Shown here one piece after another: positions 5,254 through 45,571 of a stretch of 46,682 nucleotides of DNA (positions within the stretch are counted from its first letter, which is position 1; each line of letters opens with the position of its first letter). The position numbers and the translations under genes are program-made. Source of the stretch: an uncultured bacterium (lineage in GTDB: Bacteria > Patescibacteriota > Saccharimonadia > UBA4664); contig CAVRET010000001.1 of NCBI GenBank assembly GCA_963720265.1, forward strand, positions 521,113 to 567,794, given 5' to 3'. The notes under the pieces were generated by a model. It saw only the letters and a program-made list of their open reading frames with translations. It had not been told where the DNA came from and searched no databases.

Positions 5254-5323
5254 GCATAAGCGTGTTACATGAGATGTCTCGTACCCCCCGACTGGGACGG
5301 GGCTACGGGACGTTACCCGAACC
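5254..5323 (+). repeat. Intergenic repeat family copy E (long form)
   Basis: Sequence is gcataagcgtgttacatgagatgtctcgtaccccccgactgggacggggctacgggacgttacccgaacc. The 3-prime 34 nt match copy B (38523-38556) at about 27/34 positions, and tttaagcataag is shared with copy B. It lies between convergent genes. Confidence 0.55.
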
Positions 5324-5362
5324 GATTGAGCTTGCCCTTGACTAATTATTCCCCGGTTTTCG

Positions 5363-6094
5363 CTAGACGAGGCCCGGTAGGATTGCGCTAACGTAACGAT
5401 TGAAGCTTGGGGCTTTGCCGTCCCCAATTAACTTGAGGATCATGCCATCGGTAATATGGGCAACGATCATCTCTACTTCGTCTGTATGCTTATCATATTT
5501 TTTGCCGACTAACTGGAGAATGTTTGATACTTCGGGTGCTGGATGCAAAAAGGTCGCTTCAGGTGAGATTGTAGCCAAGTCATAGCCTAAAGAGTCTTGG
5601 ATGAACTTGAATGATAGCTTGCTGTCAATCGCTTCAAATAGACCAGGCATTGAAAGCATCCAGGCCTCGGTTTCCATCTCTGCATACGAAAATTGAACCC
5701 TGCCCTTGGGGTCGGCATCTTCTGACTGTTTTGCGGCGCTTTCTCGATACACCTCATTTAAGGATAGGTCTAGCTTGCCGCCGCTCAGTCGCAAATAGTC
5801 GCTTCCGTATAGATCTTTGAGCCCAACCACAACCTCAGAGCCCCTAAAGAGGAGCCCTTCGAGACGATCTTTTAGAGACGACAGAACACTACCGTCGCCA
5901 GGTGCAATGAAGATGTTGTAGTAATTGGAGGCAGAAGAGTTTGTACTAAAACTCCTAAGCGGTTTTCCTGCTCCGCTTGACTTGGACAATGCGATTATGT
6001 CTACGTATAAATCACCCAGCGGGATGCTTTGCTCAAGTAGAGCGCGTGTAAATATCGCTTCCGTTTGGCCCTCTACAAAGATGGCCGCTTTCAC
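5363..6094 (-). CDS. Toprim-like / DUF4276-like protein, partner of the upstream ATPase
   Basis: The N-terminus MKAAIFVEGQTEAIF has a Toprim/DUF4276-type hVEGxTE acidic motif. A later acidic cluster is YAEMETEAWML. Its start lies 2 nt after the stop of ORF 6097..7215 on the same strand. Confidence 0.55.
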   Translation of the reverse strand: MKAAIFVEGQTEAIFTRALLEQSIPLGDLYVDIIALSKSSGAGKPLRSFSTNSSASNYYNIFIAPGDGSVLSSLKDRLEGLLFRGSEVVVGLKDLYGSDYLRLSGGKLDLSLNEVYRESAAKQSEDADPKGRVQFSYAEMETEAWMLSMPGLFEAIDSKLSFKFIQDSLGYDLATISPEATFLHPAPEVSNILQLVGKKYDKHTDEVEMIVAHITDGMILKLIGDGKAPSFNRYVSAILPGLV

Positions 6095-6096
6095 CG

Positions 6097-7215
6097 TTAG
6101 CTCTTTTCTAGATAATCAGACGAGAAAAGATCGAAATTACTTAGTCCAGTTAGGCGAAACTTGTCAAAGGCTTCCTTTTTGTTTGTGTAGTTTGCGGCCT
6201 TTACTTCCCCGTGAGCTCTGGAGAGTATATTCCATTTTTCTATGTCCACTCCGTTCATAAGCACTCTGCTATTCGTGGCCGCAATCAGCTGAACATTTGG
6301 TAGCGCCAGTTTTTCAAAAACAAGTTTTGACAGTCTGTTAGCTCGGTCATAATCTAGGCCTTCATCCAGGTCGTCAATTAAGACCAGGTTCTCGGCGCCC
6401 TTCTTTTTACTCCTGATGTACTCAACTAGAATTAGGAGCGAAAGTGCTCTCACCAAACCCGTTGAAAGTTCTATCTGGGCAATTGGGAGGTCTTGCCCCT
6501 CGGGTTTGACGTTGAGCATCTTTATGTCTAGCCCCAGGCCTAATTCTGGGTTTGTGGCCATTGAAACATTCTCGAGTTGATATCCGATATGATTCATATT
6601 GCTAATTACGTTTTTTACATCCGCATCATCTAGGTCAGCCAGCAACGGACCCGCCGCCTGAAGGCCGATGTTCCCCAGAAGTTGATCTGCTGACTCAGGA
6701 GTCTTTATCAAGTTAACTAAGTTGTTTGCATTAACATCTGCAAAACCGACTCGCAAGGTGTTTGAAGCCCAGTTGTTAAGACTAACAAAATAGGGGTATT
6801 CAAATTCGTCCGCTCGAGACTGCATAACAAGCTTATCGGCAGGAGGTTGAATGTCTTCATCCTGTTTAGATTTTTCACTGAATAGTTTCGTGCCTTGCTT
6901 GGTCCGAGTTAGCTTAACCGATCCTGACACTGAAAGCTTTTCCTCGACAATAGTTTTGTCGATAGCTACCTTTAATTTGTACATAATTTCCGTGCCGTCG
7001 CGTTCGAATGTCGCGTCCCAGCTACCGGGAGATAGAGTCCTTTTTCCGGTCAACATTTGAGAGAAGTTAGATATCAGATTAAGCAGGCGTGTCTTTCCTA
7101 CCGCATTCATTCCGACAACGAGATTCTGATCTTGTAAGACTACCCCGCTAATAGACCAAGGATTGCGGCCAAGTTGGCGTAGGTCTTCTGAGTAATTAAA
7201 TGCTTTGAGCTTCAT
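6097..7215 (-). CDS. ABC-type (AAA_15/AAA_21-like) ATPase
   Basis: Walker A is GMNAVGKT, the signature-like motif is ELSTGLVRAL, and Walker B is LVLIDDLDEGLD followed by QLIAATNS. There are no transmembrane segments. It forms an operon with 5363..6094. Confidence 0.7.
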   Translation of the reverse strand: MKLKAFNYSEDLRQLGRNPWSISGVVLQDQNLVVGMNAVGKTRLLNLISNFSQMLTGKRTLSPGSWDATFERDGTEIMYKLKVAIDKTIVEEKLSVSGSVKLTRTKQGTKLFSEKSKQDEDIQPPADKLVMQSRADEFEYPYFVSLNNWASNTLRVGFADVNANNLVNLIKTPESADQLLGNIGLQAAGPLLADLDDADVKNVISNMNHIGYQLENVSMATNPELGLGLDIKMLNVKPEGQDLPIAQIELSTGLVRALSLLILVEYIRSKKKGAENLVLIDDLDEGLDYDRANRLSKLVFEKLALPNVQLIAATNSRVLMNGVDIEKWNILSRAHGEVKAANYTNKKEAFDKFRLTGLSNFDLFSSDYLEKS

Positions 7216-7371
7216 ATCGAGTAGAGTATACCAAAATACGCTAACTAAATCCTGCTCATGGGGCTTAATGGGCTAACATCCATTAGTCTCTGCGCGTTGA
7301 TTCCGCGCCTAATAGGCATTCGTGTTGGTTAGTTATAATGAGTTACGGAATATACTTGGAGATCAATAAGG

Positions 7372-7974
7372 ATGGATCCAACTCAAAAACAATTGGCTGA
7401 GCTTGCCGTACAGCTTGGAGAGGTGACCGTCAGGAATACGGCGGGGGCAATTTTAGATAAAGTTCGTGCGGCTAAAGTCAGAAAGAATGACAAAGAAACA
7501 ATCAGTCAGCTTGAAGAAATAATAAGTAGCTTGATATCGGATAAAAACGATTTAGTTCAAATTGCTCAGACGTATGAACAAGAATTTGCAGCTCAGAGAA
7601 TCTCAAAAGAAGACATTAATTATATTACTGAAAAATTTGTGCCTACTTTGCGAGAGCTACTGAAGAAGCTTCCTAACAGTGACAGCAGTACGGCAAATAT
7701 GGAGCAAACTTTTGATGTCTTGAAGCCTATAATGTCGGTTGAAACGCTTACGATTCTTCAGCTGTTAGGATTCAATTTTAAACGAGGTATTGGTGAGCCC
7801 CTAACAGTACTCCTTCAGAAGTTTATTCTGTCGAAGGCACCTTCTGAACAGTCATCAGATCTGGAGTTGAGTAAGCTGATTGCTGCGCAGAACACCGAGT
7901 TCTTAAAGTTGGCGCAAGATAAAGAGTCCTCCAAAAGGTATCAGGTTCTAAATGGAAGTGCTGTTAAAAAATAG
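7372..7974 (+). CDS. Hypothetical all-helical protein
   Basis: 200-aa ORF with RBS aagga upstream of the ATG. No motif recognised. It is divergent from the ATPase operon. Confidence 0.35.
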   Translation: MDPTQKQLAELAVQLGEVTVRNTAGAILDKVRAAKVRKNDKETISQLEEIISSLISDKNDLVQIAQTYEQEFAAQRISKEDINYITEKFVPTLRELLKKLPNSDSSTANMEQTFDVLKPIMSVETLTILQLLGFNFKRGIGEPLTVLLQKFILSKAPSEQSSDLELSKLIAAQNTEFLKLAQDKESSKRYQVLNGSAVKK

Positions 7975-8121
7975 CTGCCTTGGATGGCCGATACGACCTA
8001 GCTGGGCCTTACTTAAGGCGGGTCCCTCTCAGATAGCCCAAACGATACGAAATGTCATCGGTAGTGAGCCGCCAATCGGTGCATTTGAGTGTTTTTTCGA
8101 CCAGTTTCTTGAGTATGGCCC

Positions 8122-8733
8122 CTACGTGCATGTCCCAGGGGACTCCCCTGCGGCATTCGGCGTGCAGCCGCCAGTGGAGTTGAATAAGTTGCCCTGGATG
8201 ATTAGCACGTAGAAAAGGTACCCAACGATTAACGCTAAGATGACATACCAAAAGATCTTCTTGGCCTGAGCGTTATTGTTATCGCGTATTTCCGCTCGTA
8301 GTTTCTCTAGTTCGTTCCGGTGCTTTTGTTCCACTTCTTCCAAAGTCTCGGCGCCCAGAATGTGAGAGTAGACGGCTTTATTTTCCTTGTCCACCCGGTC
8401 AACAATTTCAACAACAGGATTTTTTAGCTCAAGACCCGACAGCCCTGGAGCGTCCTTGTATTTGCTGTATGGCCTTCTAACTCCTATCAGTCCGCGGAAT
8501 ATGTAGGACTGTCCAGTCTTCAGCCTGCCGCGCATTTGTAAATCATGGTCCCAGATGACGTGGAACGACCCTGTTTTGTCACTTATGTAACATTCTGTAC
8601 CGCTGCCGACTCCATCCCCATCAAATGTAGTCAAGTGCAAGTTGGTAGTGCCCATTAAGGCCACGGGCTTGCCAGGGATGGGGTTATTGCAAGCGGAGAT
8701 GCTAATTATTGGAGTTTTGATTATCTTCGGCAT
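8122..8733 (-). CDS. Hypothetical protein with a coiled-coil segment and a C-terminal transmembrane helix
   Basis: 203-aa ORF with a beta-rich N-terminal half, a helical ETLEEVEQKHRNELEKLRAEIRD segment, and a TM helix IFWYVILALIVGYLFYVLII. Confidence 0.35.
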   Translation of the reverse strand: MPKIIKTPIISISACNNPIPGKPVALMGTTNLHLTTFDGDGVGSGTECYISDKTGSFHVIWDHDLQMRGRLKTGQSYIFRGLIGVRRPYSKYKDAPGLSGLELKNPVVEIVDRVDKENKAVYSHILGAETLEEVEQKHRNELEKLRAEIRDNNNAQAKKIFWYVILALIVGYLFYVLIIQGNLFNSTGGCTPNAAGESPGTCT

Positions 8734-8910
8734 TAACTCTATGCCCTATTTTAATGAGAGTGTACGTCTTATAGCACTGGCTAAGCAATTTATCGTATGC
8801 TCACCCGGATTTTCACTTATTGAGTTCTGAACTGAAGGCCGAATATGATAAGGTTAGAACCTCAAATTATGGCTCTGTTGAGGAAGAAACTGCCGCTATT
8901 GCGGGTATAA

Positions 8911-8945
8911 AAACACAATGGCTGGGGTGGCCGGATTCGAACCAC
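8911..8945 (+). repeat. Repeat family copy F1; reads as a tRNA 3-prime end remnant on the minus strand
   Basis: Sequence is aaacacaatggctggggtggccggattcgaaccac. The reverse complement of 8919-8943 is GGTTCGAATCCGGCCACCCCAGCCA: T-loop, 3-prime T-stem, acceptor strand, discriminator and CCA. No matching 5-prime half follows, so it is a fragment and not a gene. Confidence 0.6.
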
Positions 8946-8956
8946 TGGTTGAAGTG

Positions 8957-8985
8957 TTGACACTAGTGTACAAGATCTATACAAT
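8957..8985 (+). promoter_or_regulatory. Sigma-70-like promoter for the RHH/PIN cassette
   Basis: TTGACA (8957-8962), a 17-nt spacer, then TACAAT (8980-8985). RBS gaggagcagagg precedes the ATG at 9012. Confidence 0.55.
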
Positions 8986-9011
8986 ACTTGTTAGTATGAG
9001 GAGCAGAGGTT

Positions 9012-9263
9012 ATGGCTACAAAGACACTCAATATCGCCCTCGATGAGAGGCTTATCAAGGACATAGACGAGGCTGTTAAAAGCGATATGGGTAGCCGGAG
9101 TGAGTATTTCCGCCGACTTGCGATGAAGGACTTGGAGCGTCGACGCGAGTGGAGGCAAGTGCTTGATGCAGCCAACGAAAAAGGCCGCAAGATGGGTATA
9201 ACAAGCGAGCAGCAGGTATACGATATCATAGCGGAGTATAAGCGTGACAAACGCGGTAAGTAG
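9012..9263 (+). CDS. Ribbon-helix-helix (CopG-like) antitoxin
   Basis: 83 aa. The N-terminus KTLNIALDERLIKDIDEAV...SRSEYFRRLA has the RHH pattern. It overlaps the downstream PIN gene by 20 nt. Confidence 0.7.
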   Translation: MATKTLNIALDERLIKDIDEAVKSDMGSRSEYFRRLAMKDLERRREWRQVLDAANEKGRKMGITSEQQVYDIIAEYKRDKRGK

Positions 9264-9666
9264 TGCTCGTGTCGTAATAGATACAAATATTTTCGTCTCG
9301 TCTATTGTGTTTGGAGGTAAGCCGCGCCGCGTGTTGGATGCAGTGGCAGATGATACCATCACACTTGTTACGGCAGAGGAGTTAGTTACCGAAATTCGGC
9401 GCGTGATCTTAACTAAATTCCCGGATTTTTTACGAGATCTCAAGAAGGTAGAGAAGTTAATCGAGTCAGATGCAACCTGGGTAAAGCTGGGTTTACTTTC
9501 ACTATCAGTAAGCCGAGATCCTGATGATGATAAATTTATTGAAGCCGCACTTATTGGAGATGCTAAATATATTGTGAGTGGAGATAGAGATTTACTGGAT
9601 CTAGGGGCATACAAGGCGATTAGGTTTGTGACACCCGATGAGCTCCTGAAGCATTTCGCAAAATAG
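9244..9666 (+). CDS. PIN-domain toxin (PIN_3 / TIGR00305-like)
   Basis: 140 aa. Contains VVIDTNIFVSS (first acidic PIN motif), DDDKFIEAAL, and YIVSGDRDLL near the C-terminus. Confidence 0.7.
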   Translation: MTNAVSSARVVIDTNIFVSSIVFGGKPRRVLDAVADDTITLVTAEELVTEIRRVILTKFPDFLRDLKKVEKLIESDATWVKLGLLSLSVSRDPDDDKFIEAALIGDAKYIVSGDRDLLDLGAYKAIRFVTPDELLKHFAK

Positions 9667-9674
9667 CGAGCCGC

Positions 9675-9710
9675 AGGCTCAATGGCTGGGGCGATTGGCT
9701 TCGAGCCAGA
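9675..9710 (+). repeat. Repeat family copy F2; degenerate tRNA-3-prime-end-like
   Basis: Sequence is aggctcaatggctggggcgattggcttcgagccaga. It shares aatggctgggg (11/11) with F1, and 15/17 of tgRctggggcgatWgg with copy C. The reverse complement is GGCTCGAAGCCAATCGCCCCAGCCA. Confidence 0.55.
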
Positions 9711-11087: not shown

Positions 11088-12542
11088 ATGCGGTCTCGGT
11101 GGCTCATTTTTGTGCTGGTGGCGATTGCCCAATTTATGGTTGTGCTTGATGCTGCCATTACCAACGTGGCACTGCCCACGATAAAAGCGCAGCTTGGTTT
11201 TACCGACAGCACCCTGCAATGGGTGGTGACGGCCTACGCATTAACGTTTGGCGGATTTCTACTGCTCGGCGGACGGGCGGCGGATTTGTTTGGCAGGCGG
11301 CGCACGCTGCTCGCCGGCATGGCGGCATTCACCGTGTTTTCGTTTTTGATCGGCGTTACCCATTCGGTTGTTCTGCTGATCAGTTTACGGGCACTGCAAG
11401 GAATGGCGGCGGCGTTCATGTCGCCTTCGGCGCTGTCGATTGTGCTGACCACGTTTCGCGACGGGCCGGCCAGAAACCGGGCGCTGGCGTTTTGGACACT
11501 CGTTGCCACCGCGGGTGCGGCCGTCGGGCTGTTGCTGGGCGGCGTGCTGACGCAATACGTGGGCTGGCGCTGGGACTTCTTTATTAACGTGCCGGTTGGG
11601 ATCATTATGACGATTTTGATTTCACGGCTGGTGCCGGTACAAGCACGCAACGAAAATGCGTCCGGGCTGGACCTACCCGGGGCGGCGCTTATTACCAGCA
11701 GCCTGATGCTCATTGTGCTGGCGTTGAGCGAGGCGGCAAGCTGGGGCTGGACGAATATGAAAACACTCGGAGTGTTGGGCGTGGCCGCGGCACTGGCGCT
11801 CACGTTTGTGGCCAACGAAGCTCGGGCCAAACACCCGCTCGTACCGCTTAAGATCTTTAAGATTCGCAACGTGACAGGGGCGAATCTCATGATGGCGCCG
11901 ATGTACGGCACGATGATGGGCCTGTTCTTTATCGTGACGCTCTATGCCCAAACGATTCTCAAGTTCTCGCCGGTCGCAACGGGACTCGCGTTTTTGCCCA
12001 TGCCGGTGGTGCTCGCCGTCATGTCTTCTCGGATGCCAAAACTCGTGGCCAGGTATGGCTTTAAGCGGTTTTTGATCGCGGGACCGCTGCTCGTGGCAGT
12101 GGGGCTGTTGTTGCTATCACGGATGCCGGTGGGTGGAAGCTATATTTCGGCGCTCTTGCCGGCGCTGATCGTGATTCCGGCCGGTATTGGCATGACGTTT
12201 ATGCCAATCATTGCGGCGGCGACGTCGGGCGTACCGGCTAACCACTCGGGGCTGGCATCTGGCCTAATTACCACTTCGCAACAGATGGGCGGAGCTGTGG
12301 GACTGGCCGTCTTGAGCGGAGTGGCGGCGTCGGTGACGACAGCGTCGGTTAGCTTGGGTTCGGCGCAGGCACTGGTACATGGATTTGACGAGGCCATGCT
12401 CGTGGCAGTGGGCTTTATGGTAGTGGCTGCGACCTTGGCTATAGCTGTGATCCGACAGCCGAAGCCGTCACTTAACCCTGAGCCTAAGATTGAGCAGCCA
12501 CGGCGCCGGCGGCCGCTCGTGATTGATATCCGGCCGCTATAA
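11088..12542 (+). CDS. MFS transporter, DHA2 (EmrB/QacA-like, 14-TM) family
   Basis: ORF 11028..12542. The preferred start is ATG 11088, preceded by aaggagg. The N-terminus has LIFVLVAIAQFMVVLDAAITNVALPTI, and LGGRAADLFGRRR is the MFS motif A. Confidence 0.8.
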   Translation: MRSRWLIFVLVAIAQFMVVLDAAITNVALPTIKAQLGFTDSTLQWVVTAYALTFGGFLLLGGRAADLFGRRRTLLAGMAAFTVFSFLIGVTHSVVLLISLRALQGMAAAFMSPSALSIVLTTFRDGPARNRALAFWTLVATAGAAVGLLLGGVLTQYVGWRWDFFINVPVGIIMTILISRLVPVQARNENASGLDLPGAALITSSLMLIVLALSEAASWGWTNMKTLGVLGVAAALALTFVANEARAKHPLVPLKIFKIRNVTGANLMMAPMYGTMMGLFFIVTLYAQTILKFSPVATGLAFLPMPVVLAVMSSRMPKLVARYGFKRFLIAGPLLVAVGLLLLSRMPVGGSYISALLPALIVIPAGIGMTFMPIIAAATSGVPANHSGLASGLITTSQQMGGAVGLAVLSGVAASVTTASVSLGSAQALVHGFDEAMLVAVGFMVVAATLAIAVIRQPKPSLNPEPKIEQPRRRRPLVIDIRPL

Positions 12543-15821: not shown

Positions 15822-15830
15822 AGCATAATC

Positions 15831-35451: not shown

Positions 35452-35475
35452 ACCTACTGCTTTTAGATCGGGGAC

Positions 35476-35854: not shown

Positions 35855-35898
35855 CGGGATCTAAGCCTCCTTTGTTACAGATCCTGGCGGGCAGTTTG

Positions 35899-36399
35899 CT
35901 AGTCGGGCGGAAATTCATCTAATAGTTTCGGATGTTCAAAGCGATAGGCAACTTTACTGCCAACTATCTTGAGATGGGCAAGGGCCGCCTCAAGCTCCTC
36001 TTCGACGGCCTTGCGCATTGTGATATCCCTAAGCACCAAAATATAGGCTGACTCCCCTGCAAACTTGGCAAGTTTGCCTTCGGCGTAAAAGATATTGCCA
36101 TTGGCTCTTCGCCCGATGAATCCATTCTTGCCATGCAATTCCGCTGAGCGCTCGCTAGAAGCGTTAAGTGCTGAAATGATGTTGTCCAGGCGGGCGCGTT
36201 TATTCTTAGGGACGAGCGTTTTGATAGTCGCTTGCGCTAATCGCTTGGCATCTGCGCCGAAGATATCCCCGGCGGCCGCGTTGGCATAGGCTATTTTCCC
36301 ATCGTGGCCAAATACCAAAACGGCATCATCAATAGAATCTAAAACCCGTTGCAGGAGATATTCATGATGCCCTTCAAATAAGTCTGGGAAGACCTTCAA
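35899..36399 (-). CDS. Stand-alone PAS-domain protein
   Basis: 166 aa with a TTG start. LLQRVLDSIDDAVLVFGHDGKIAYANAAAGDIFG...GNIFYAEGKLAKF...YILVLRDITMRKAVEEEL is the PAS fold pattern. There is no output domain. Confidence 0.6.
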   Translation of the reverse strand: MKVFPDLFEGHHEYLLQRVLDSIDDAVLVFGHDGKIAYANAAAGDIFGADAKRLAQATIKTLVPKNKRARLDNIISALNASSERSAELHGKNGFIGRRANGNIFYAEGKLAKFAGESAYILVLRDITMRKAVEEELEAALAHLKIVGSKVAYRFEHPKLLDEFPPD

Positions 36400-36656
36400 T
36401 CTCAGATCCTTTTCTTTGCGCTCCTATGGCTTAGCCCTTGACCAGCTCTTCCATAAGCCGGATTATCACGCTGAAATCTCCATTATGCAACCCGCGGGCC
36501 ATTCCGATGGCAGCAATCTGTCAATCTCTGGGAGTTTATCGCAAGCTCCATAGTAAAAGCCGGCACCGCCCCGCAAGTTTGTAAATTTCAATCATGCATG
36601 CAACCGTTCAACCAGTCTAATATGCGTGTGACGAGCATTAAAGGGGAGACAATGTC

Positions 36657-37211
36657 ATGGCCACACTAATACTAGGTGCATTCCAAAATCAGTCCGATGC
36701 AAATAACGCCATAGTAGAACTGGAAAAGATGGGGGCGTCGAGTGATGACTTTTCACTCATCATGCCCGACAAATCTGACCGCACAAACAATTTTCGCGAG
36801 ACACTGACTGAAACTGGCCCGGCTCGCGTCGCGACTGAAGTCGCCGCTGGTGGCGCCGCTATTGGGGGACTGGCCGGGCTCATCGGAGGTGCGATCGCGG
36901 CCGCAGGCCTGTTCGTTGCGGGACCGGTCGTGTTGCTAGCGGGCCTTGGATGGGTCGCGCTTGCCACAGTTGCGGGCGGAGCGGTCGGTGCGGCTGCCGG
37001 CGGGATCGTTGGTGCGCTCATTGGTCTGGGGGTGCCTGAGGATGCCGCAAGACGTCACGAAGCCGTTATCAAAAAGGGAGGGGCTATTCTGGGGGTCCAA
37101 GACAATGCAATCAGCAAGTCCCAGGCACGCGATGTGCTTGAAGAGAATGGCGCTGAGGAAGTTGTTGATATTGCCCATAGCCCGCTGCCGGCAAAGTTGG
37201 CTGCCACCTAA
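36657..37211 (+). CDS. Glycine-zipper membrane protein with a general-stress-protein-17M/YflT-like N-terminal domain
   Basis: The N-terminus is ILGAFQNQSDANNAIVELEKMG. The central region is a Gly/Ala-rich TM region (GGAAIGGLAGLIGGAIAAAGLFVAG...). The C-terminus has GVPEDAARRHEAVIKKGGAILGV. Confidence 0.5.
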   Translation: MATLILGAFQNQSDANNAIVELEKMGASSDDFSLIMPDKSDRTNNFRETLTETGPARVATEVAAGGAAIGGLAGLIGGAIAAAGLFVAGPVVLLAGLGWVALATVAGGAVGAAAGGIVGALIGLGVPEDAARRHEAVIKKGGAILGVQDNAISKSQARDVLEENGAEEVVDIAHSPLPAKLAAT

Positions 37212-37293
37212 CTGGGTGCAAATTTGTGAGTCGTTCATGAAAATAGGGCTTTAACTAAGCCCTATTTTATTTGCGGGAGCTATAATCGGTTAT

Positions 37294-37881
37294 ATGGGTG
37301 TGGCTAATAGTAAAACGCGTTGTCCCTGGGTTGGCACGAGCCCACTGTCTATTGACTATCATGACAACGAGTGGGGCGTGCCGGTCCATGACGATACCAA
37401 GCTATTCGAGTTTTTAGTCTTGGAAGGAGCCCAAGCTGGGCTGTCGTGGCTGACCATTTTAAAAAGGCGCGAGGGCTACCGTAAAGCTTTCGCTCGTTTT
37501 GACCCATCGGTCGTTGCAGGCTTTGACGAGCGTGACCAGCGAAGATTGCTCGAAGATGAGGGCATTATACGGAATCGACTGAAGGTGCACGCGGCCGTGA
37601 TAAATGCCCAAAAGTTTGTGCGTATACAGCAGGAGTACGGCTCGTTCGATGTGTACCAATGGCGGTTTGTAGATGGCGAGCCGCTGCAGAACAGCTGGCG
37701 TGCGCTGTCCGAATTACCGGCTATCTCGCCGCAAGCGATGGCTTTTAGCAATGATTTGAAGCAGCGGGGTTTTACATTTGTGGGGCCAACGATTATCTAC
37801 GCCCATATGCAAGCTGTCGGGATGGTGAATGATCATATCGTTGACTGTTTTCGATATGATGAAATTCGAAAACTAGTGTAG
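37294..37881 (+). CDS. tag: DNA-3-methyladenine glycosylase I
   Basis: RCPWVGTSPLSIDYHDNEWGVPVHDDTKLFEFLVLEGAQAGLSWLTILKRREGYRKAF is the canonical Tag N-terminal signature. Length is 195 aa. Confidence 0.85.
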   Translation: MGVANSKTRCPWVGTSPLSIDYHDNEWGVPVHDDTKLFEFLVLEGAQAGLSWLTILKRREGYRKAFARFDPSVVAGFDERDQRRLLEDEGIIRNRLKVHAAVINAQKFVRIQQEYGSFDVYQWRFVDGEPLQNSWRALSELPAISPQAMAFSNDLKQRGFTFVGPTIIYAHMQAVGMVNDHIVDCFRYDEIRKLV

Positions 37882-37884
37882 TTT

Positions 37885-37908
37885 CATGGCTGGCCATTAT
37901 CGCCGAAG
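37885..37908 (+). repeat. Repeat family copy L (compact form)
   Basis: catggctggccattatcgccgaag. It contains atggctgg plus ttatc..cgaa in the family order. It lies between tag and the disrupted kinase-like gene. Confidence 0.35.
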
Positions 37909-37952
37909 TTAAAACCATCTTATGGGCTTTAACTCAATGGGCGAACTAGTAT

Positions 37953-38448
37953 TTAGCGCGTTTTTGTATGATTCAGAAGATCGTCAGCTATACTTTCAAC
38001 TGGTTTTGTAGCATCAAGCCTGAACGCCCTGGGGTCGATAGCTGCGCTCATTTCTTTATGCACAGAGAGTATTAGCTGCCTTTCACTGGCGGATTTACCA
38101 TATTCCTTGCTTCTCGTATCAAGCCGTTCATTCAATACATCAAGAGGAATAGCCATCCAGATGTACTCGTCGGCAGCAGCCTTCACCTCCTCGAGATTAT
38201 CAGGATTACCAAGCAAGAAAATATCCTTAGTGCTTGATTGTTCCTTGAGTTTTCTTAGTGATTTTGTAGGGAATACCCAATTATAACCTTCAGCTTTAGC
38301 TTTCGTAATCTAAGGGCTCTCCGTTTATTTTTGACTGCCTAACGCATTCAGTATCGGTATCGTGTGCTTCCTTACCTCGATTGCGAAGTTCGTTCATAAG
38401 AGTAGTCTTGCCGGTGCCGGATGCTGCAGATATGAAATATAATGCCAT
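37953..38448 (-). pseudogene. P-loop NTPase / small kinase-like gene with a frameshift
   Basis: Hand translation from ATG 38446-38448 gives MALYFISAASGTGKTTLMNELRNRGKEAHDTDTECVRQSKINGEPLDYES* (Walker A is SGTGKT). Removing one A from the AAA run (plus-strand ttt at 38301-38303) joins it to ...AKAEGYNWVFPTKSLRKLKEQSSTKDIFLLGNPDNLEE..., the frame of ORF 37953..38216. Confidence 0.55.
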
Positions 38449-38510
38449 GCAAGAATTTTACCATCTTACATTCGCCTGTATTAACGCGAAAAGACCTCTG
38501 AAGAAGTCTC

Positions 38511-38556
38511 TTTAAGCATAAGAGTTTTGGCCGGGGCTATGGGGCGTTATCCGAAC
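38511..38556 (+). repeat. Repeat family copy B (full form)
   Basis: tttaagcataagagttttggccggggctatggggcgttatccgaac. It aligns along its length with copy D2 (41764-41803) and with the ends of copy E. Confidence 0.55.
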
Positions 38557-38704
38557 AATTCGTACTTAAACGTCTAGATATGATGTGAAGCTGAGTACAG
38601 TGCAAGGTTACGCGGTGCGCTCGATATTTATAAGGGCGGCACTAGCTAATTTCGGGAATTGTAGTCTTTTTGGACTTCCAAATTACATCAGAGGATCTTC
38701 ACTG

Positions 38705-39280
38705 CTATACGTTGGCAGGTGTGCCTGCGAATTTTTTTAGTGTCGCCGCTGAGAGATCATCGATACTCGCGTTTGATTGCTTAAGAGTGGAATAAAGGGC
38801 GTTAAATAGTTGATTTTGATGAGTCCAGCCTTTTGTTGGGATCTGCGCTTGTGCTCCCATTTGGTCGAGAACAACGAATACCGCAGGTAAATAAATGGGT
38901 ATAAAACCGCTGCCAGATGCTGACGAGACTTTGAATCGAGACGGTTTGTATACGCAACTTTTTAAGCTCGATAAGTCGACAGCTGAAGCTACAGGAGCGC
39001 CGTTGGGTGCATATGCGAGCTGGGTACCGTAGGCATTCAACCGTCCAAATCCATATCTTGATAATCCATATGAAAGGTAGGTGAGGAAGGCAGATATTGC
39101 ATATAAGAGACAGACTACATACACCACGGCGACAGCCTGATATTTAAATAGTCCGAATGCTCCGAACAAAATTGCCAGGACAATCATTACAGCCAGAACA
39201 GAACCGCTAATCTGGACTGGCTTCATCCACCGAAAACTCATCGTTGGTTCATTGGTTGGGGAGGAATGTCGTTGATCCAT
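38705..39280 (-). CDS. Hypothetical membrane protein
   Basis: 191 aa with two or three N-terminal TM spans (VLAVMIVLAILFGAFGLF, AVAVVYVVCLLYAISAFLTYL). No motif recognised. Confidence 0.35.
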   Translation of the reverse strand: MDQRHSSPTNEPTMSFRWMKPVQISGSVLAVMIVLAILFGAFGLFKYQAVAVVYVVCLLYAISAFLTYLSYGLSRYGFGRLNAYGTQLAYAPNGAPVASAVDLSSLKSCVYKPSRFKVSSASGSGFIPIYLPAVFVVLDQMGAQAQIPTKGWTHQNQLFNALYSTLKQSNASIDDLSAATLKKFAGTPANV

Positions 39281-39351
39281 TTTTTAGCTGGCCCTTTTAT
39301 TTATATCCGGATAGCCTTGAGGATTTACGTGAACTTGGTACGCCAAGAGGG

Positions 39352-39978
39352 CTAGTGGGCGATTGGAGTTGGTGTATATGCCTTCTTCCCGCGGTGGATA
39401 AACCAACGTACGAACAGCGTAGCAACGGTTGCGATTAGCACCAGTACCCAGATTAGAGTGTTATTTGTCTGCGCTCCAAGTAGGCTACAAATGAGCGAAA
39501 GTACAATGAAAATAAAAATTCCAAGCATAAACCATAGGACAAACCCCCACATTAGTGAAATTATCCTTGGGTTAGGATCACCAGACGTTTTGAAATGCTG
39601 CGATAGGGCCGTTTTCCATTGTGCGTCAGTCAGCGCTCCAGCCATTTGCCGACCGGCCCAGTAGCCTTGACCGGCGCGGCCCATTAGCCCGAAACCCACT
39701 GTGCCTGGATTATAGAACGCGATTTCCGTAACTTTGCCAGTTTTTGGGTGAACTCGCATCCACCCATACGCGAACTGGATGAAGTCGACATCAGCCGGCG
39801 TATATTTCATGAGGGCCACCCCGTCTGCACCGGTAAACGTAAGTGCAGTACTGTCAAAGCTCAAGGTGCCTTTGCGTGTGCCGAAACCGTACATACGGCC
39901 ACCAAGCCAAGCCGGGGACTGTGCTGGCATAGGCGCGGCAGGATGCTGAGGTAATGGACTCTGTGTTTCGGGGTTCAT
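39352..39978 (-). CDS. Hypothetical protein with a soluble N-terminal domain and a C-terminal 2-TM anchor
   Basis: 208 aa. The N-terminus is Pro/Gln-rich. C-terminal TMs are LMWGFVLWFMLGIFIFIVLSLI and LIWVLVLIATVATLFV. Confidence 0.35.
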   Translation of the reverse strand: MNPETQSPLPQHPAAPMPAQSPAWLGGRMYGFGTRKGTLSFDSTALTFTGADGVALMKYTPADVDFIQFAYGWMRVHPKTGKVTEIAFYNPGTVGFGLMGRAGQGYWAGRQMAGALTDAQWKTALSQHFKTSGDPNPRIISLMWGFVLWFMLGIFIFIVLSLICSLLGAQTNNTLIWVLVLIATVATLFVRWFIHRGKKAYTPTPIAH

Positions 39979-40207
39979 GCGTTTTACGTTGTTTCCTTAC
40001 GCAAAGCATAGATTAGTTCGAGCATAAGCACAATACAGCTTCTAGTAGCTAACAAATGTAACGGAGCCTAAGCTTCATCAGCTGGATGTTGCCGGTGCGT
40101 GGTCAAAATTACGAGATATGAGTGGCGACTGTGTACTTTTGCTTTCAGCATTTTTCCTACGCGGACGATTAATGTAGAGTATGCATAATAATTAGTTAGG
40201 CTTATTA

Positions 40208-40939
40208 ATGAGCGCAAATATCCCGGGCGGAAAAACAAATGAATTGGGCCAAATAGTTGTAACAGTAGGGTCGCAAACTATTGTCGTTCCCCAGCAAATC
40301 ATTGATGCGCAGCGCAAGGTCCGCTACCCTTTTGTGTATCTCATAATTGTTACTCCGCTCATTGCCCTATGTACCTATCTCGTTATTTTGAGCGAAGGAA
40401 GTGAAGCGAGATTAGCAGCGCAGATAAAGCAAAATTTAGTTGCAACAACTGCTACCGCTACCGTGGTTACTACCCCGGAGCGGGGTGCGGCCCGTTATAC
40501 CATGACTTATACCTTTTCCGTTCCAGGGAGCAATCAAAAATTTGTCAACACTGATTATTCTACCGACGCAGCGAGTTCCTTGAATACGGAGGAATTTAAC
40601 CGTCTCTCCACCAAATTAGGTCTGGGGATAAACCTCAACGCGCAAAATGGCTACCGCAACACAGGCCCCATTTCCATCATGTACGACAGCCAAGACCCTG
40701 CTAAAAACCTCACGCAATTTGATATAAAAACCTTGAGAGCCCCCAAAACATTTGCGAAAGAAGCCGTCATCAATGTCTTTTTGTTTTGGCTATTCCTTTT
40801 CGTGCCGTTGGGATTTTTGATTCGCATGATTATCAGGCAAAATGTCTGGTTTAAATATCAAGGCCAGGTTTTGTTACAGCTGCGGAAGGCCAGGCTGCAA
40901 CAGAAAGCCGAAACCGTCGAACCTGCGACAAGTAAATAA
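40208..40939 (+). CDS. DUF3592-like membrane protein
   Basis: A TM, then a beta-rich region (ATATVVTTPERGAARYTMTYTFSVPGS ... ISIMYDSQDPAKN), then a TM. This matches the DUF3592 layout and its V.YDP.NP-like motif. Confidence 0.45.
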   Translation: MSANIPGGKTNELGQIVVTVGSQTIVVPQQIIDAQRKVRYPFVYLIIVTPLIALCTYLVILSEGSEARLAAQIKQNLVATTATATVVTTPERGAARYTMTYTFSVPGSNQKFVNTDYSTDAASSLNTEEFNRLSTKLGLGINLNAQNGYRNTGPISIMYDSQDPAKNLTQFDIKTLRAPKTFAKEAVINVFLFWLFLFVPLGFLIRMIIRQNVWFKYQGQVLLQLRKARLQQKAETVEPATSK

Positions 40940-41150
40940 GTCATTTCCCGGTTAGGTCCATATGTAGCCAATCTGCTACGCATTGCTGGGAGGGCTTATT
41001 AGCTGTGTCATCAACGCGTGCAAAGCCGCACGGTTTCCTAATAGGGATTGCGAAAAATAAGCCGCGCGATAGAGCTAAGGATAGAGATTCTTCAAGCTAT
41101 TCCCGGCAGATATAAATTGCTACAAAAAAGACCGTTTATGGAACACGATC

Positions 41151-41186
41151 CTTACTATGACTGGGGCGATAGGACGTTATCCTAAC
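41151..41186 (+). repeat. Repeat family copy C
   Basis: cttactatgactggggcgataggacgttatcctaac. It contains the hairpin tagga-cgtta-tccta. The reverse complement is GGATAACGTCCTATCGCCCCAGTCA, with the same layout as F1 and F2. Confidence 0.5.
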
Positions 41187-41318
41187 TTAAGCCATTGCGT
41201 GAGGCGGCGTAGAAGTGAAATAGTCACTATCTGTCTTGCCCGAATATTCATTGTTCCTATTCAAAGCGAGCGCGTAAAATAATTTATATATGCAGCGACT
41301 AATGAACGGGAGTCGAGT

Positions 41319-41540
41319 GTGAGTAAATCATACAAATCATGGACAATATATAGCGTTGGGCTTTTTGTAGTCTGGGTGCTTATTTTTCTGGCTAGATGGA
41401 AGCTTAAGGGAACTCCTGGTCTGGATACAATAGCCTTAATTTTCTTTGGATATTTTGTTGGCTGGTTATCGGCAACGATAAAGTTCGTTCTGATAAGCAA
41501 AGGGATTTTCGGTCTTACGTCGTTCAAGTCTGGAAAATAA
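41319..41540 (+). CDS. Small two-TM membrane protein
   Basis: 73 aa with a GTG start. TMs are IYSVGLFVVWVLIFLA and IALIFFGYFVGWLSATI. It is preferred over the overlapping antisense ORF 41261..41527. Confidence 0.35.
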   Translation: MSKSYKSWTIYSVGLFVVWVLIFLARWKLKGTPGLDTIALIFFGYFVGWLSATIKFVLISKGIFGLTSFKSGK

Positions 41541-41730
41541 TTGCGGTAATGATTCCATTTCTTGTTGAGGCGGGATCGATCAAGCGTGTCGGCTTTTTTG
41601 TTGGTGCTGTAGTACGCCGAGTACAGTAAATTCCGATATTGCCACCGTTTTGGGGAGCGATAATGGAAGCCGATGAATCGTTGACAGACCTACAGTTGAG
41701 TTCCAGAGCCTGCTATCACCACCCCCTTGA

Positions 41731-41803
41731 GCGCGGTCGTTATCCTAGCCGCACTTCCCGTTGAATAAGCGCGGGCTGGGACTGGGGGGAGTTATCAGAT
41801 GCC
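41731..41803 (+). repeat. Repeat family copies D and D2 (tandem partial plus full form)
   Basis: gcgcggtcgttatcctagcc ... aataagcgcgggctgggactggggggagttatcagatgcc. D2 parallels copy B position by position (ataag..gg.c.ggg.ct..gggg.gttatc.ga). It ends 3 nt before the stop of 41807..42268. Confidence 0.5.
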
Positions 41804-41806
41804 ATT

Positions 41807-42268
41807 TCAATCCGGCCGATAGCGCGAAAACACTTGTTGCTCTTTTAATATCTTCACAATGATGTGGCCGCTCGCAACTACCCTACCGTACATGGCCCCT
41901 GCCAGTAGCGAGAGGCTAATTGCGGGCACCGCTTCGCTGTGGGTAAAAATATGCACCAAATGCCCTCGCGAAAGGTCGAAAACAATATATAGCACGAGGA
42001 CCACGGCCCCATAGATGTCTATGTTACTCGTGACATGCTCCGCGTCTTTGTCCCAAGAGATTTTATACATGCGAGCAAAGATTGCACCGCATAGAATTCC
42101 AACTAGCAGACCCAAGATTATCTGCCAAACGGTCGCACGATAGTGTAGGGCCTCATAAATGACCGCAGCCAGAAGAATCACTGAGATGATGAAATACAAC
42201 CTCAGGCTGCGTTGTAATTTCGGGTTCACATGAGAACGCGCGTGGTCTCGCAGTGCTTTTCGGTCCAT
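41807..42268 (-). CDS. Hypothetical 4-TM membrane protein
   Basis: 153 aa with four hydrophobic spans. No motif recognised. Confidence 0.35.
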   Translation of the reverse strand: MDRKALRDHARSHVNPKLQRSLRLYFIISVILLAAVIYEALHYRATVWQIILGLLVGILCGAIFARMYKISWDKDAEHVTSNIDIYGAVVLVLYIVFDLSRGHLVHIFTHSEAVPAISLSLLAGAMYGRVVASGHIIVKILKEQQVFSRYRPD

Positions 42269-42284
42269 GTCGGGACTATATCAT

Positions 42285-42314
42285 AAACATAAGTGCTTTG
42301 GCTGGGACTGGCAG
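42285..42314 (+). repeat. Repeat family copy G
   Basis: aaacataagtgctttggctgggactggcag. It is very close to D2 (ataagcgcgggctgggactgg) and to B (cataagagttttggccggggct). It runs directly into the 42308-42355 hairpin. Confidence 0.5.
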
Positions 42315-42355
42315 CCGGACGGCACGGGGTTGTCCCGTTGCCGCCCGGCTGCCAG
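42308..42355. terminator. Long imperfect GC hairpin between 41807..42268 and 42374..42913
   Basis: In ctggcagccggacggcacggggttgtcccgttgccgcccggctgccag, the pairing is 11 bp, a 1x1 mismatch, 5 bp, a bulged T, 4 bp and a 5-nt loop. It lies 19 nt downstream of the stop of the 179-aa ORF. Confidence 0.5.
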
Positions 42356-42373
42356 CGGAAGTGGGCGCCTGGG

Positions 42374-42913
42374 TTAGCTTACGGGGCGGAAGACCCCGAG
42401 CATGTTTGCGAGCGCAATCCTGAGCGGCGCCCTGACCCTGGCATGCGGGTCGTTGCTCAGAACTAGCGAAAGCCCGATGGCCAGCTCGTCCGGAGCCTCG
42501 CCTGCCATGAAGCGCACGGCCTTGATTGCGCAGGCATGGGCGCCGGACGGCAGCGGGACCTCGTCGGCGTACCTGAGGTCTGCGCCGGTGACGAGTACCA
42601 ATGGCTCGTCTAGCAGGGCGACAAGGCTGTCGCGGACGTCCGTGATGAGCCGCCGGAGTTGCATCCGCGTTTCCTGGACCTCGTTCCAGAGGGCAGCAGC
42701 GCGCCGGGCAACACTCGTCAGCCGCGGGTTGTCCGTAAAGGTTAGCTCGCCGCCGGGCGAGTCGGCTCGTGCCGTGCTTATTACCACGTCTTCTGTCAGG
42801 CTGTAATGCTTGGCGATGGTGAGCGGGCCTTCACAGCTCTCAATGCGCTCGGTGACGAAGATGTGGGCGGTGGTGTCTAGCCCAACGTAGTCGCCGGTTG
42901 CCGTTTCCGTCAC
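42374..42913 (-). CDS. Hypothetical protein (high-GC island), second gene of a two-gene operon
   Basis: 179 aa with a GTG start 10 nt after the stop of 42924..43121. No motif recognised. Confidence 0.35.
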   Translation of the reverse strand: MTETATGDYVGLDTTAHIFVTERIESCEGPLTIAKHYSLTEDVVISTARADSPGGELTFTDNPRLTSVARRAAALWNEVQETRMQLRRLITDVRDSLVALLDEPLVLVTGADLRYADEVPLPSGAHACAIKAVRFMAGEAPDELAIGLSLVLSNDPHARVRAPLRIALANMLGVFRPVS

Positions 42914-42923
42914 CGACGTGGTG

Positions 42924-43237: not shown

Positions 43238-45256
43238 TTAACCAAATAGCTTTTGTAAGGCCTGTTCGTCCAGTTTGGTTGTACCAAGCTTATCCGCTTT
43301 GGCCAATTTGGAGGCGCCGGGAGAGTCGCCCACAATGAGATAGGTGGTATCCTTTCCCACCGAGTTTTGCTCCTTGGCGCCGAGGGCTATGAGGCGGGCC
43401 GCTACTTCGTCGCGGGTGCCTGATTCGAGTGTGCCGGTGATGACGAATTTGACGCCCGAGAGTTGACCACGGACGCGCTCATACGCCCGGGGATGGACGT
43501 CTGCCTGTGCGAATTTATGCAGGAGGTCTTGGGTGTCTTCTGCGGCGAAGAAGGCGAGCACGGATTCGGCCACCACGGTGCCGATGCCTTCAACGGCTTC
43601 GAGGCTTTCGAGCGTGGCATGTTCGAGGTCTTCGAGTGATCCAAAGGCTTCGGCCAGGTCAACGGCGGTTTGCTCGCCGATATGGCGGATGCCTAAGGCA
43701 TAGATGAAGCGCGGAAGCTCGGGGGTTTTGGACGCCTGGATGGCGTCGATGAGTTTGCCGGCACTGATATCGGCAAAGCGGTCTAATTTGAGCAGGTCGT
43801 CTTTCGTGAGCTTGTAGAGATCCGCCGGCTCTTCAACGAGACCGGCATCGACGAGGGCGACGACGTTTTTTTCACCGAGTGTATCGATATCGAGGGCGGC
43901 TTTACTGGCATAGTGCTCGACGGCTTTTTTGAGCAAGAGCGGGGCGGTGGCGCCTTTCACGCGATATACCACTTCCCCTTCCGGGCGTTCAAATTCGAGC
44001 TCGGGGTATTGGCGCGCGAGCTCTGCTTCCATGTTGAAGGGCTTTGAGTTTTTGGGCCGGAGTTTGGGCAGGGATTGCAGCACCTTAGGAATAATGTCGC
44101 CGGCCTTATAAATAATGACCGTGTCCCCCACCCGCACATCGAGGCGGGCGATTTCGTCCTGGTTGTGTAAACTTGCGTGCTGGACCGTGGTGCCGGCAAC
44201 CACCACAGGATCGAAGGTGGCGATGGGGGTGGCTGCACCGGTGCGGCCGATACTGATCACGATGTCTTTCACAATCGTGGTGGCTTCTTCGGCCGGGTAC
44301 TTGTAAGCGACGGCGCCACGGGGGGCTTTGCCGACAATACCGAGCTGGGCAAAGACGGCCCGATCATTGACTTTGATGACCGAGCCGTCGGTGTTAAACG
44401 GCAGTGTTGCGCGCATCTCTTCCCAGGTATCAATGAAGTTCATGAGGGCATCGAGGGTCATAAATGTATTGGCATGCCTGTTGGCAGCAAGACCCAAGTG
44501 GCGGATAGTGTCGTAGGCGAAGGAATTGGTGGGCACTTGAGCCGGGTCATCTCGGAGCAGGTCGTAGCCGCGGAAGGTTAGTGGCCGGGCGGCCACGAGC
44601 GCGGGATCGAGCTGCCGAATGGTGCCGGCGGCGGTGTTGCGCGGGTTTGCGAACAACGGCAGGCCGAGCTCGGCTTGGCGGGCGTTGAGCGCCTCAAAGT
44701 CTTTTTTGAGCATTACGACTTCGCCGCGGATTTCGGTGCGGCCCTGCAAGAATTCCGGATGCTCAGGCCAGCGGCGGAGTTTAAGCGGTACGGATTCGAT
44801 AGTGCGGACGTTCATAGTAACGTCTTCCCCGACTTGCCCATCGCCGCGGGTGACAGCCTGGGTGAGCGCACCGTCTTGGTAAATCAGGGCGCAAGCGAGC
44901 CCGTCCATTTTGGTATCGGCAAACAGTTCGGTGGCGGCGCCGGGGGTTAGCTTATTGATGCGATCCGCCCAGGCCTCGACCTCCTCGCGCGAAAACACAT
45001 CGTTGAGCGAAATCATGGGTACGGAGTGGCGGACTTTTTTGAACTTCTCGGACGCCTTACCGGCTACGCGCTGGGTTGGCGAATCTGGAGTGATGAGATC
45101 AGGATACTGCTCTTCGAGTTGGCTAAGTTCGTGCTTGAGCTGGTCGGCCGCCGCTTCTGGCATGGTCGATTCATCAAGCACATGATAGTGGTAACGATAA
45201 TCATTGATCTGGTCGCGCAGTTTGGCGATGCGCTCGGTTGCCTGTTGCTTGGTCAT
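43238..45256 (-). CDS. ligA: NAD-dependent DNA ligase
   Basis: 672 aa. Contains KMDGLA (adenylation lysine motif), EIRGEV, the OB and HhH regions, and a C-terminal BRCT (FVITGTLESGTRDEVAARLIALGAKEQNSVGKDTTYLIVGDSPGSKLAKA). Confidence 0.9.
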   Translation of the reverse strand: MTKQQATERIAKLRDQINDYRYHYHVLDESTMPEAAADQLKHELSQLEEQYPDLITPDSPTQRVAGKASEKFKKVRHSVPMISLNDVFSREEVEAWADRINKLTPGAATELFADTKMDGLACALIYQDGALTQAVTRGDGQVGEDVTMNVRTIESVPLKLRRWPEHPEFLQGRTEIRGEVVMLKKDFEALNARQAELGLPLFANPRNTAAGTIRQLDPALVAARPLTFRGYDLLRDDPAQVPTNSFAYDTIRHLGLAANRHANTFMTLDALMNFIDTWEEMRATLPFNTDGSVIKVNDRAVFAQLGIVGKAPRGAVAYKYPAEEATTIVKDIVISIGRTGAATPIATFDPVVVAGTTVQHASLHNQDEIARLDVRVGDTVIIYKAGDIIPKVLQSLPKLRPKNSKPFNMEAELARQYPELEFERPEGEVVYRVKGATAPLLLKKAVEHYASKAALDIDTLGEKNVVALVDAGLVEEPADLYKLTKDDLLKLDRFADISAGKLIDAIQASKTPELPRFIYALGIRHIGEQTAVDLAEAFGSLEDLEHATLESLEAVEGIGTVVAESVLAFFAAEDTQDLLHKFAQADVHPRAYERVRGQLSGVKFVITGTLESGTRDEVAARLIALGAKEQNSVGKDTTYLIVGDSPGASKLAKADKLGTTKLDEQALQKLFG

Positions 45257-45263
45257 GGAGTAA

Positions 45264-45527
45264 TTATACCCTGCGTGCTGACCTTAAACACACGGAAGCC
45301 ACCTTGCGGCGACTTACCGTGTGTCGAAACAAGGTGGCTATTGAGTTGTGAGAATGTAACCGCCAGACGATCCAAGATGCCGACGGTACAGACTCATTCT
45401 CGCGCAGTTGATCGGAGGCAGTAAACCACTGGCGAACCGGCACGCCGGCGATAGCACAGTAGCATATCCACATCAACAGAAGGAAAGCGAACGTGCCGAC
45501 GCCGGCGGCTATCCATGACATTGCCAT
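45264..45527 (-). CDS. Small membrane protein (one TM); the 3-prime part overlaps structured RNA-like repeats
   Basis: 87 aa. The ATG is preceded by aaggaag. The TM is IAAGVGTFAFLLLMWICYCAIAG. Confidence 0.4.
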   Translation of the reverse strand: MAMSWIAAGVGTFAFLLLMWICYCAIAGVPVRQWFTASDQLRENESVPSASWIVWRLHSHNSIATLFRHTVSRRKVASVCLRSARRV

Positions 45528-45550
45528 AGAGACTTCCTTACTTCGAGCAC

Positions 45551-45571
45551 ATATAGTGCCTGGGCCTAGAC
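45551..45571 (+). repeat. Repeat family copy J
   Basis: atatagtgcctgggcctagac, compared with G ataagtgctttggctgggactgg. It lies at the left edge of the terminal high-GC block. Confidence 0.35.

Follow-up and report, generated by a model that had tools for sequence, protein, structure and literature searches.

We analysed a stretch of 46,682 nucleotides (hereafter the window; positions 521,113 to 567,794 of contig CAVRET010000001.1) from a genome of soil Saccharibacteria (TM7), in which an earlier reading made from the letters alone (the original prediction) had described a dispersed family of short repeats. The sequence of the repeats originates in a tRNA-Gln gene, namely in its 3′ end and the DNA just downstream; their left and right halves are mixed at a short shared core; related genomes carry arrays of them downstream of tRNA-Gln; and the DNA that they bound consists of variable, low-GC accessory genes. 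The explanation that we favour, with moderate confidence, is that they are copies of an attachment site taken from the tRNA-Gln 3′ end, bounding small inserted gene blocks that lack an integrase. The window carries the gene for NAD-dependent DNA ligase (ligA; 43238-45256, minus strand), the product of which shares 79-80 % identity with proteins that carry the name Candidatus Saccharimonadia and has its closest relatives at 88 % identity. Pfam matches depict an accessory-rich chromosomal region, 85 % coding, in which genes for transporters and hydrolases occur together with a toxin-antitoxin pair, a GH59 glycosidase and a defence-like ATPase module.

On the minus strand, the full element reads (AATTT)GTTCGGATAACGnCCCATA-GCCCCAGCCA-TTGCnCTTATGCTTA, an arm, a core and a flank of about 56 bases in all. 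An nhmmer profile was built from eight copies, all of them from other genomes, and then run against the window as an independent test. Copies B (E-value 2.4e-14), C (1.8e-6), E (3e-4) and G (1.8e-3) were significant; F2 (0.11), F1 (0.15) and A (0.17) were borderline; D1 (7) and D2 (50) were not significant. The family therefore comprises about seven real members, with D1 and D2 as possible degenerate copies, as follows.

38509-38562, minus strand: copy B, the best full copy, with arm GTTCGGATAACGCCCCATA, core GCCCCGGCCA and flank AAACTCTTATGCTTAAAG; nhmmer match at 38511-38562
41151-41189, minus strand: copy C, with unrelated sequence after the arm and core (GTTAGGATAACGTCCTATCGCCCCAGTCA); nhmmer match at 41151-41186
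5250-5327, minus strand: copy E, arm at 5299-5327, core-like CCCGTCCCAGTC, an insertion of ~29 nt, then flank CTTATGCTTAA at 5250-5262
42281-42311, minus strand: copy G, core and flank without the arm (CCCAGCCAAAGCACTTATGTTTATGA); nhmmer match at 42281-42308
8916-8943, minus strand: copy F1, a tRNA-Gln 3′ fragment from the T-loop to CCA plus TTG (GGTTCGAATCCGGCCACCCCAGCCATTG)
9680-9707, minus strand: copy F2, a second tRNA-Gln 3′ fragment (GGCTCGAAGCCAATCGCCCCAGCCATTG) and a direct repeat of F1
35436-35450, minus strand: copy A, an arm fragment only (GTACGGATAACGTCT), one mismatch from CGTTATCCGAAC
41735-41749, minus strand: D1, arm-like, a possible decayed copy
41763-41803, minus strand: D2, a degenerate arm-core-flank, a possible decayed copy

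The original prediction had counted at least 12 copies, all intergenic and in one orientation except for an inverted pair. A real family was thus correctly perceived, though with about seven members: the items labelled L, I and J and the inverted pair at 26106-26175, about a third of its list, were not recovered by the profile over the window, and these four are non-members. The quoted sequences are all present where they had been placed, and the seven best profile matches all lie on the minus strand and outside called genes, as it had held for its copies; no inverted copy exists in the family. The core that it had named, TGGCTGGG, is the reverse complement of the 8-base core CCCAGCCA and occurs six times in the window against 1.9 expected, a count that none of 100 shuffles reached. 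The motif CGTTATCCGAAC, allowing at most one mismatch, occurs four times, on each occasion on the plus strand and between genes (~0.2 expected by our own arithmetic). The similarities that it had checked by hand hold as well, with identities of 24/28 for B and E, 15/17 for F2 and C and 19/23 for G and D2. F1 and F2 agree at 23/29 and make up repeat family D3, with block CCCCAGCCATTG common to both, whilst the flank 13-mer CTTATGCTTAAAG is identical in copies E and B. The flank of copy E overlaps the stop codon of gene 4084-5253, copy A lies 50 nt downstream of a DUF1801 gene (35501-35854), and copy G is continuous with a TATAGT box and with the start codon (ATG) of gene 41807-42268. At the site of the discarded inverted pair, 26119-26175 holds a 14-base GC-rich inverted repeat (GCCCCGCCCACCAG ... 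CTGGCGGGCGGGGC) over the start of an open reading frame (ORF; 26114-26746), which is unrelated to the family.

Relatives of the element were sought among public genomes, taking one genome per species and using GGGGCNNNNGGNCGTTAYCCNAAC as query. The scan returned 18 stretches, 16 of which were single matches in unrelated phyla (~35 would be expected by chance, again by our own arithmetic); only CAVRJJ010000001.1, a metagenome-assembled genome referred to below as CAVRJJ01, held several matches, four exact ones together with near matches. A metagenome scan added three true members (loci L027, L028 and L030) and two chance matches. Viral contigs gave no match in three pattern scans, and a viral origin was dropped. 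Loci L012, L017, L031 and L036 all belong to CAVRJJ01, the copies of which are much cleaner than those of the window and share a 30-base block, ATGGCTGGGGCTATGGGnCGTTATCCGAAC, often with TTAAGCATAAGnGCA ahead of it. Over 31-53 nt, copy B shares 85-93 % identity with copies in L012, L028, L030 and L031, the surroundings of which are unrelated; by eye, D2 has CCCAGCC..GCGCTTAT in common with copy L012a.

Comparison with real tRNA genes identified the source of the repeats. The arm GTTCGGATAACGnCCCATA, of ~27 bases, is not tRNA sequence. The core, GCCCCAGCCA(T), corresponds to the 3′ strand of the tRNA-Gln acceptor stem with the discriminator base and CCA, and the flank, TGCnCTTATGCTTA (~15-18 bases), is a copy of the chromosomal DNA just downstream of the tRNA-Gln gene. 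In L030 a real tRNA-Gln(ctg) ends in ...GGTTCGAATCCTAGCGCCCCAGCCA followed by TAGTACTTATGCTAAAATC, and in L017 a real tRNA-Gln(ttg) ends in ...GCCCCAGCCA followed by TTGCACTTATGCTTATTGA; across the two genes, GCCCCAGCCA is succeeded by TAGTACTTATGCTAAAA or TTGCACTTATGCTTATTGA, in agreement with the core and flank of the element, which match the tRNA-Gln of L031 too. F1 matches the segment from T-loop to CCA plus TTG of the L017 gene at 25/28 positions and F2 at 23/28, against a best of 20/28 when 30 shuffles of the window were compared with the same 28-base tRNA query. Over core and flank, G and B match tRNA-Gln at 21/25 and 20/25, respectively, and copy C matches the 3′ part of the L030 tRNA-Gln(ctg) at 21/28. 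The remark in the original prediction that reverse complements of its repeats resemble acceptor-CCA ends was therefore well founded, the core being the acceptor 3′ strand of tRNA-Gln with its CCA. Elements that target tRNA genes for integration are well known to leave direct repeats of partial tRNA genes as their footprint, and so the family is not of an unrecognized kind, as had been supposed. In one further locus, L034 (1-175), the contig breaks off inside tRNA-Gln at ...GCCCC, which is the core.

When copies of the window and its relatives were aligned on the 8-base core CCCAGCCA, left and right halves were found in five combinations around it.

tRNA, core and flank: the real tRNA-Gln genes
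arm, core and flank: B, L012a, L012b, L012d and L028
arm, core and unrelated sequence: C, L012c, L017, L031, L027 and L030
unrelated sequence, core and flank: G, L028, L030, and L001 just downstream of ligA
tRNA-like sequence, core and unrelated sequence: F1 and F2

Both edges of the core are places where breakpoints cluster, and such clustering on either side of a short shared sequence is the signature of site-specific recombination there. Two paralogous gene blocks within one genome, L012 1297-1824 and L017 4489-5213 of CAVRJJ01, have 82-85 % identity, which ends precisely at ...CCAGCCAT. This block has a high GC content and comprises promoter GATATAATATCATATTA, one gene and two hairpins, then arm and core; the gene encodes 172 aa in one copy and is truncated to 93 aa in the other.

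The same breakpoints bear on whether the repeat might simply spread by itself, either as a miniature element derived from tRNA-Gln or as a transposed or retro-copied fragment, with the genes between copies being ordinary variable genes. Short length (30-56 nt), multiple copies, a narrow lineage, exclusively intergenic positions and arrays away from tRNA genes all suit such an element, and the strict single orientation is what single-strand transposons display. However, the truncations are non-random and fall at the core edges; the copies include chromosomal sequence flanking the tRNA gene, whereas a copy made from RNA would lack it; and they lie co-directionally downstream of tRNA-Gln. Nor do they have terminal inverted repeats, a hairpin or a target duplication, and no transposase is present nearby (none was found by Pfam among the window genes). 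We regard self-spreading as quite unlikely. Repetitive extragenic palindromic (REP) sequences are palindromic, and miniature inverted-repeat transposable elements (MITEs) have terminal inverted repeats and target duplications. The present family is like REPs, the bacterial interspersed mosaic elements (BIMEs) built of them, and MITEs in being short, multicopy and intergenic; REP and MITE were rejected as candidates, with no internal or terminal inverted repeats found and all copies in one orientation, none inverted.

Under the favoured explanation, namely that the repeats are attachment-site copies, circular DNA carrying the arm, the core and further sequence would be joined by a site-specific recombinase to tRNA-Gln or to an existing copy, with the crossover falling within the core. 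Each event would leave one more direct repeat, and repeated events would build same-direction arrays of small gene blocks; later deletion may then have removed the recombinase genes and eroded some copies. We infer the action of a recombinase, the exact position of its crossover and any present-day activity of the system from the arrangement of the copies.

Related genomes display the arrays that such events would produce. In L031 of CAVRJJ01, tRNA-Gln lies at 9904-9830 and copies at 6121-6069 and 3176-3124; in L030, tRNA-Gln lies at 205-279 and copies at 617-646 and 2082-2132. In both cases the copies are downstream of the tRNA gene and in the same direction. Five genomes were compared around tRNA-Gln (L031-L035): the side carrying an AI-2E transporter, CysS, RecR ... 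DnaB is syntenic in all five, whereas the opposite, copy-bearing side is different in every one of them. Copies are closely packed, four in 3.8 kb (L012/L036) and at least three in 1.8 kb (L028), mostly with one to three genes per block. As in L034, an assembly breaks at such a site at the end of L036, where the CAVRJJ01 contig stops ~1.8 kb past the last of the four copies.

In the window, the copies bound and subdivide two segments of low GC content, set in sequence of 55-59 % GC, which bears out the earlier claim that many repeats sit at GC breakpoints.

5324-9710, no strand assigned: low-GC segment 1 (45-46 % GC), with copies E, F1 and F2 as its bounds and internal divisions
8957-9666, plus strand: block enclosed by F1 and F2, with promoter TTGACA-17-TACAAT, an RHH/HicB-like antitoxin gene (9012-9263) and a PIN toxin gene (9244-9666)
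35452-42284, no strand assigned: low-GC segment 2 (43-50 % GC), made up of blocks of 0.5-3 kb with copies A, B, C, D and G between them

Segment 1 contains an AAA_21 and DUF4276 module, two genes without known relatives and the toxin-antitoxin pair. The promoter of the enclosed block is near consensus (scan score 11/12), and its genes form a VapBC-like pair in Pfam (PIN_3, 9.9e-22; weak matches to HicB_lk/RHH). A minus-strand ORF called antisense to the pair (8991-9614; 207 aa, TTG start, no family) is spurious and is the reason why F1 had seemed to lie downstream of a minus-strand gene. Most genes of segment 2 have no Pfam or PHROG match, and the segment shows no synteny with the ligA neighbourhoods of relatives; the ligA flanks of the window likewise have no genes in common with them. 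In L001, the LigA of which is 88 % identical to that of the window, a core-and-flank copy (12102-12134) lies 85 nt downstream of ligA. The position downstream of ligA thus seems to be a recurrent insertion spot in this lineage. L001 also carries a plasmid-type Replic_Relax gene (15372-16010), 3 kb past the ligA-adjacent copy.

Several observations weigh against attachment-site copies as the explanation. No recombinase or integrase family was matched by the window genes or in ~100 kb of related loci (both CAVRJJ01 arrays, extended, and four other tRNA-Gln loci); absence of a recombinase from the bounded segments fits decayed remnants, or remnants mobilized in cis or in trans, and not an intact element. 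Neither excision products nor empty sites were seen. A single array contains several full arm-core-flank copies where the simplest accretion model predicts one, the left end of the paralogous block is without a core copy, and the blocks are very small (0.4-3 kb). ARAGORN detected no tRNA gene in the window, F1 and F2 being fragments only, and none lies within 11 kb of the L012/L036 array. These two arrays, having no adjoining tRNA gene, are hence not simple accretions next to tRNA-Gln and, with ligA, a core gene, just beyond copy G, they require that secondary sites or rearrangements between copies be invoked.

Some of these features would be expected if the repeats were instead working sites of an active, integron-like platform for cassette capture, in which a dedicated recombinase encoded elsewhere in the genome inserts, excises and shuffles single-gene cassettes at 56-base sites, both at tRNA-Gln and at secondary copies, that are not scars. 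The conservation of the non-tRNA arm speaks for such a platform, 29-30 of its 30 bases being identical among copies within one genome and the arm being preserved in at least five genomes despite unrelated flanks, as do the dense arrays described above, their occurrence away from tRNA genes, the lack of an integrase inside blocks and the toxin-antitoxin block held between two copies, a type of cargo familiar from large integron arrays. Against it, no recombinase was identified in the window or the related loci examined, genes in L012 point either way with respect to the site, the sites have no attC-like fold, and the many degenerate copies of the window point to decay rather than maintenance. 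Exact look-ups of three block proteins gave no match, so no block, and hence no cassette, was found in a second context across genomes. On balance such a platform appears rather unlikely. A specific version, in which soil Saccharibacteria would possess an active, hairpin-less platform of ~56-base sites derived from tRNA-Gln, with a recombinase acting in trans to capture and shuffle cassettes of one to three genes and a site that may overlap the start of a reading frame beginning MAGAMGRYPN, is likewise doubtful.

The resemblance to integrons extends to same-orientation arrays of short sites between mostly single-gene, promoter-poor cassettes, to toxin-antitoxin cassettes and to the lack of an integrase within the array, as in clusters of attC sites lacking integron-integrases (CALINs). 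However, an attC site is an imperfect palindrome with RYYYAAC/GTTRRRY ends that folds in single-stranded form, whereas the present element is tRNA-derived and has no inverted symmetry or stable fold. An attC/integron identity was rejected: no palindrome was found, nor an IntI-like gene in Pfam, fold z-scores were -0.7 to +0.8, and RYYYAAC/GTTRRRY ends were looked for by eye. By these z-scores, computed for single-strand DNA on both strands of B, C, E and L012b, the copies fold no better than shuffled sequence, and the bulged hairpins described in the original prediction are thus not a real feature. Its statement that the family matched no described REP, MITE or attC class was sound, there being no palindrome, fold, inverted ends or target duplication. 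A dif/Xer-like site and a DnaA box were also discarded, a comparison by eye revealing no inverted symmetry of the arms.

A cis-regulatory or coding feature under selection, whether a promoter or operator, a 3′-end signal for the minus-strand genes, the start of an antisense RNA or a short plus-strand ORF, would account for other details. In G, L012a, L012d and the true tRNA-Gln, the flank stands beside good -10 boxes and start codons, and all window copies are 4-180 nt downstream of minus-strand genes or ORFs. Arm and core (e.g. window 38527-38556 and L012 4451-4479) contain the forward frame ATG GCT GGG GCT ATG GGN CGT TAT CCG AAC, that is, MAGAMGRYPN, and in copies retrieved without codon-shaped patterns 10 of 15 substitutions, by hand count, fall at third positions of this frame, a marginal lean at roughly p = 0.01-0.02. 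Set against these points, the arrangement of neighbouring genes is inconsistent (convergent, tandem or divergent), and the frame is not conserved beyond codon 10, running for 13, 19, >23 or 63 codons in different copies. A short conserved peptide or gene start was accordingly rejected, with the third-position lean remaining as an oddity. Consensus scans revealed no enrichment of terminator-like or promoter-like sites, and this, with the lack of a stable fold, lends no support to the terminator or processing-site roles that the original prediction had raised. Rfam returned no match at its gathering threshold, and around F1 and F2 a limit of E<=10 brought up nothing relevant; the copies match no whole structured RNA family of the sort for which it had recommended a search, and a structured RNA was dismissed, with neither an Rfam nor a tRNA match. 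A regulatory or coding role thus seems very unlikely. Antisense translation of the source gene does occur among predicted ORFs: one in L030 (242-538, minus strand) ends in ...MAGALGFEPRIF, which is what the 3′ end of tRNA-Gln yields when translated antisense, and MAGAxGFEP-type peptides are a marker of spurious ORF calls of this kind.

If the repeats are attachment-site copies, their closest counterparts lie in genomic islands and tycheposons of Prochlorococcus, where partial tRNAs are scattered by successive integrations and newer elements are thought to push older ones outward (Hackl et al., 10.1101/2020.12.28.424599). In both systems the 3′ part of a tRNA is repeated in copies that lie co-directionally downstream of it (here, in the relatives) and recur through a variable accessory region of a small, streamlined genome. 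The present system differs in that no integrase-bearing element was seen, blocks span only 0.4-3 kb, the copy includes a conserved non-tRNA arm and the downstream flank of the tRNA, two arrays have no adjoining tRNA gene, and the host belongs to the Candidate Phyla Radiation (CPR). Integrase-less blocks that are still flanked by attachment (att) sites, termed cis-mobilizable elements (CIMEs), and tandem accretion have been described for streptococcal elements (PMC5704250). CIMEs and the blocks reported here alike lack integration and transfer genes and retain flanking att sites; the streptococcal examples adjoin a known integrative and conjugative element (ICE) or integrative and mobilizable element (IME) with its integrase and have had their mobility tested experimentally, whereas ours form arrays of many very small units.

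Further features of the neighbourhood were recorded. Directly beside copy E, on the minus strand at 5363-7215, an AAA_21 ATPase gene (6097-7215) and a DUF4276/OLD-like TOPRIM gene (5363-6094) form a pair that looks like an anti-phage defence system, and a SEC-C-motif protein is encoded on the other side of the copy (4084-5253). Within the array, between the item labelled L and copy B, a 50-aa ORF (38296-38448) holds only the N-terminus of a P-loop NTPase (weak AAA_22/AAA_18) and is probably a gene fragment. Gene 42374-42913 probably has its terminator at 42315-42357, where a GC stem of 11 perfect bp (CTGGCAGCCGG ... CCGGCTGCCAG) with a second, inner stem lies between its stop codon and copy G. 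Elsewhere in the window, 23466-26084 encodes a secreted-looking protein of 872 aa with dockerin, GH59 (galactocerebrosidase-like) and ricin-type lectin domains, a cargo unusual for a reduced Saccharibacteria genome.

An attachment-site footprint is a known kind of feature that is newly seen in Saccharibacteria; our literature search found nothing on tRNA-linked integration sites in Saccharibacteria or other CPR bacteria. CPR bacteria, including Saccharibacteria, have tiny genomes, and how they gain genes is little understood. The copies would identify tRNA-Gln, along with secondary copies of its 3′ end, as a hotspot for toxin-antitoxin, defence-like and unknown genes, and the 56-base site may serve as a probe for searching metagenomes for the recombinase and the mobile elements responsible. 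In terms of annotation, a puzzling repeat is explained and spurious ORFs antisense to tRNA-like sequence can be flagged.

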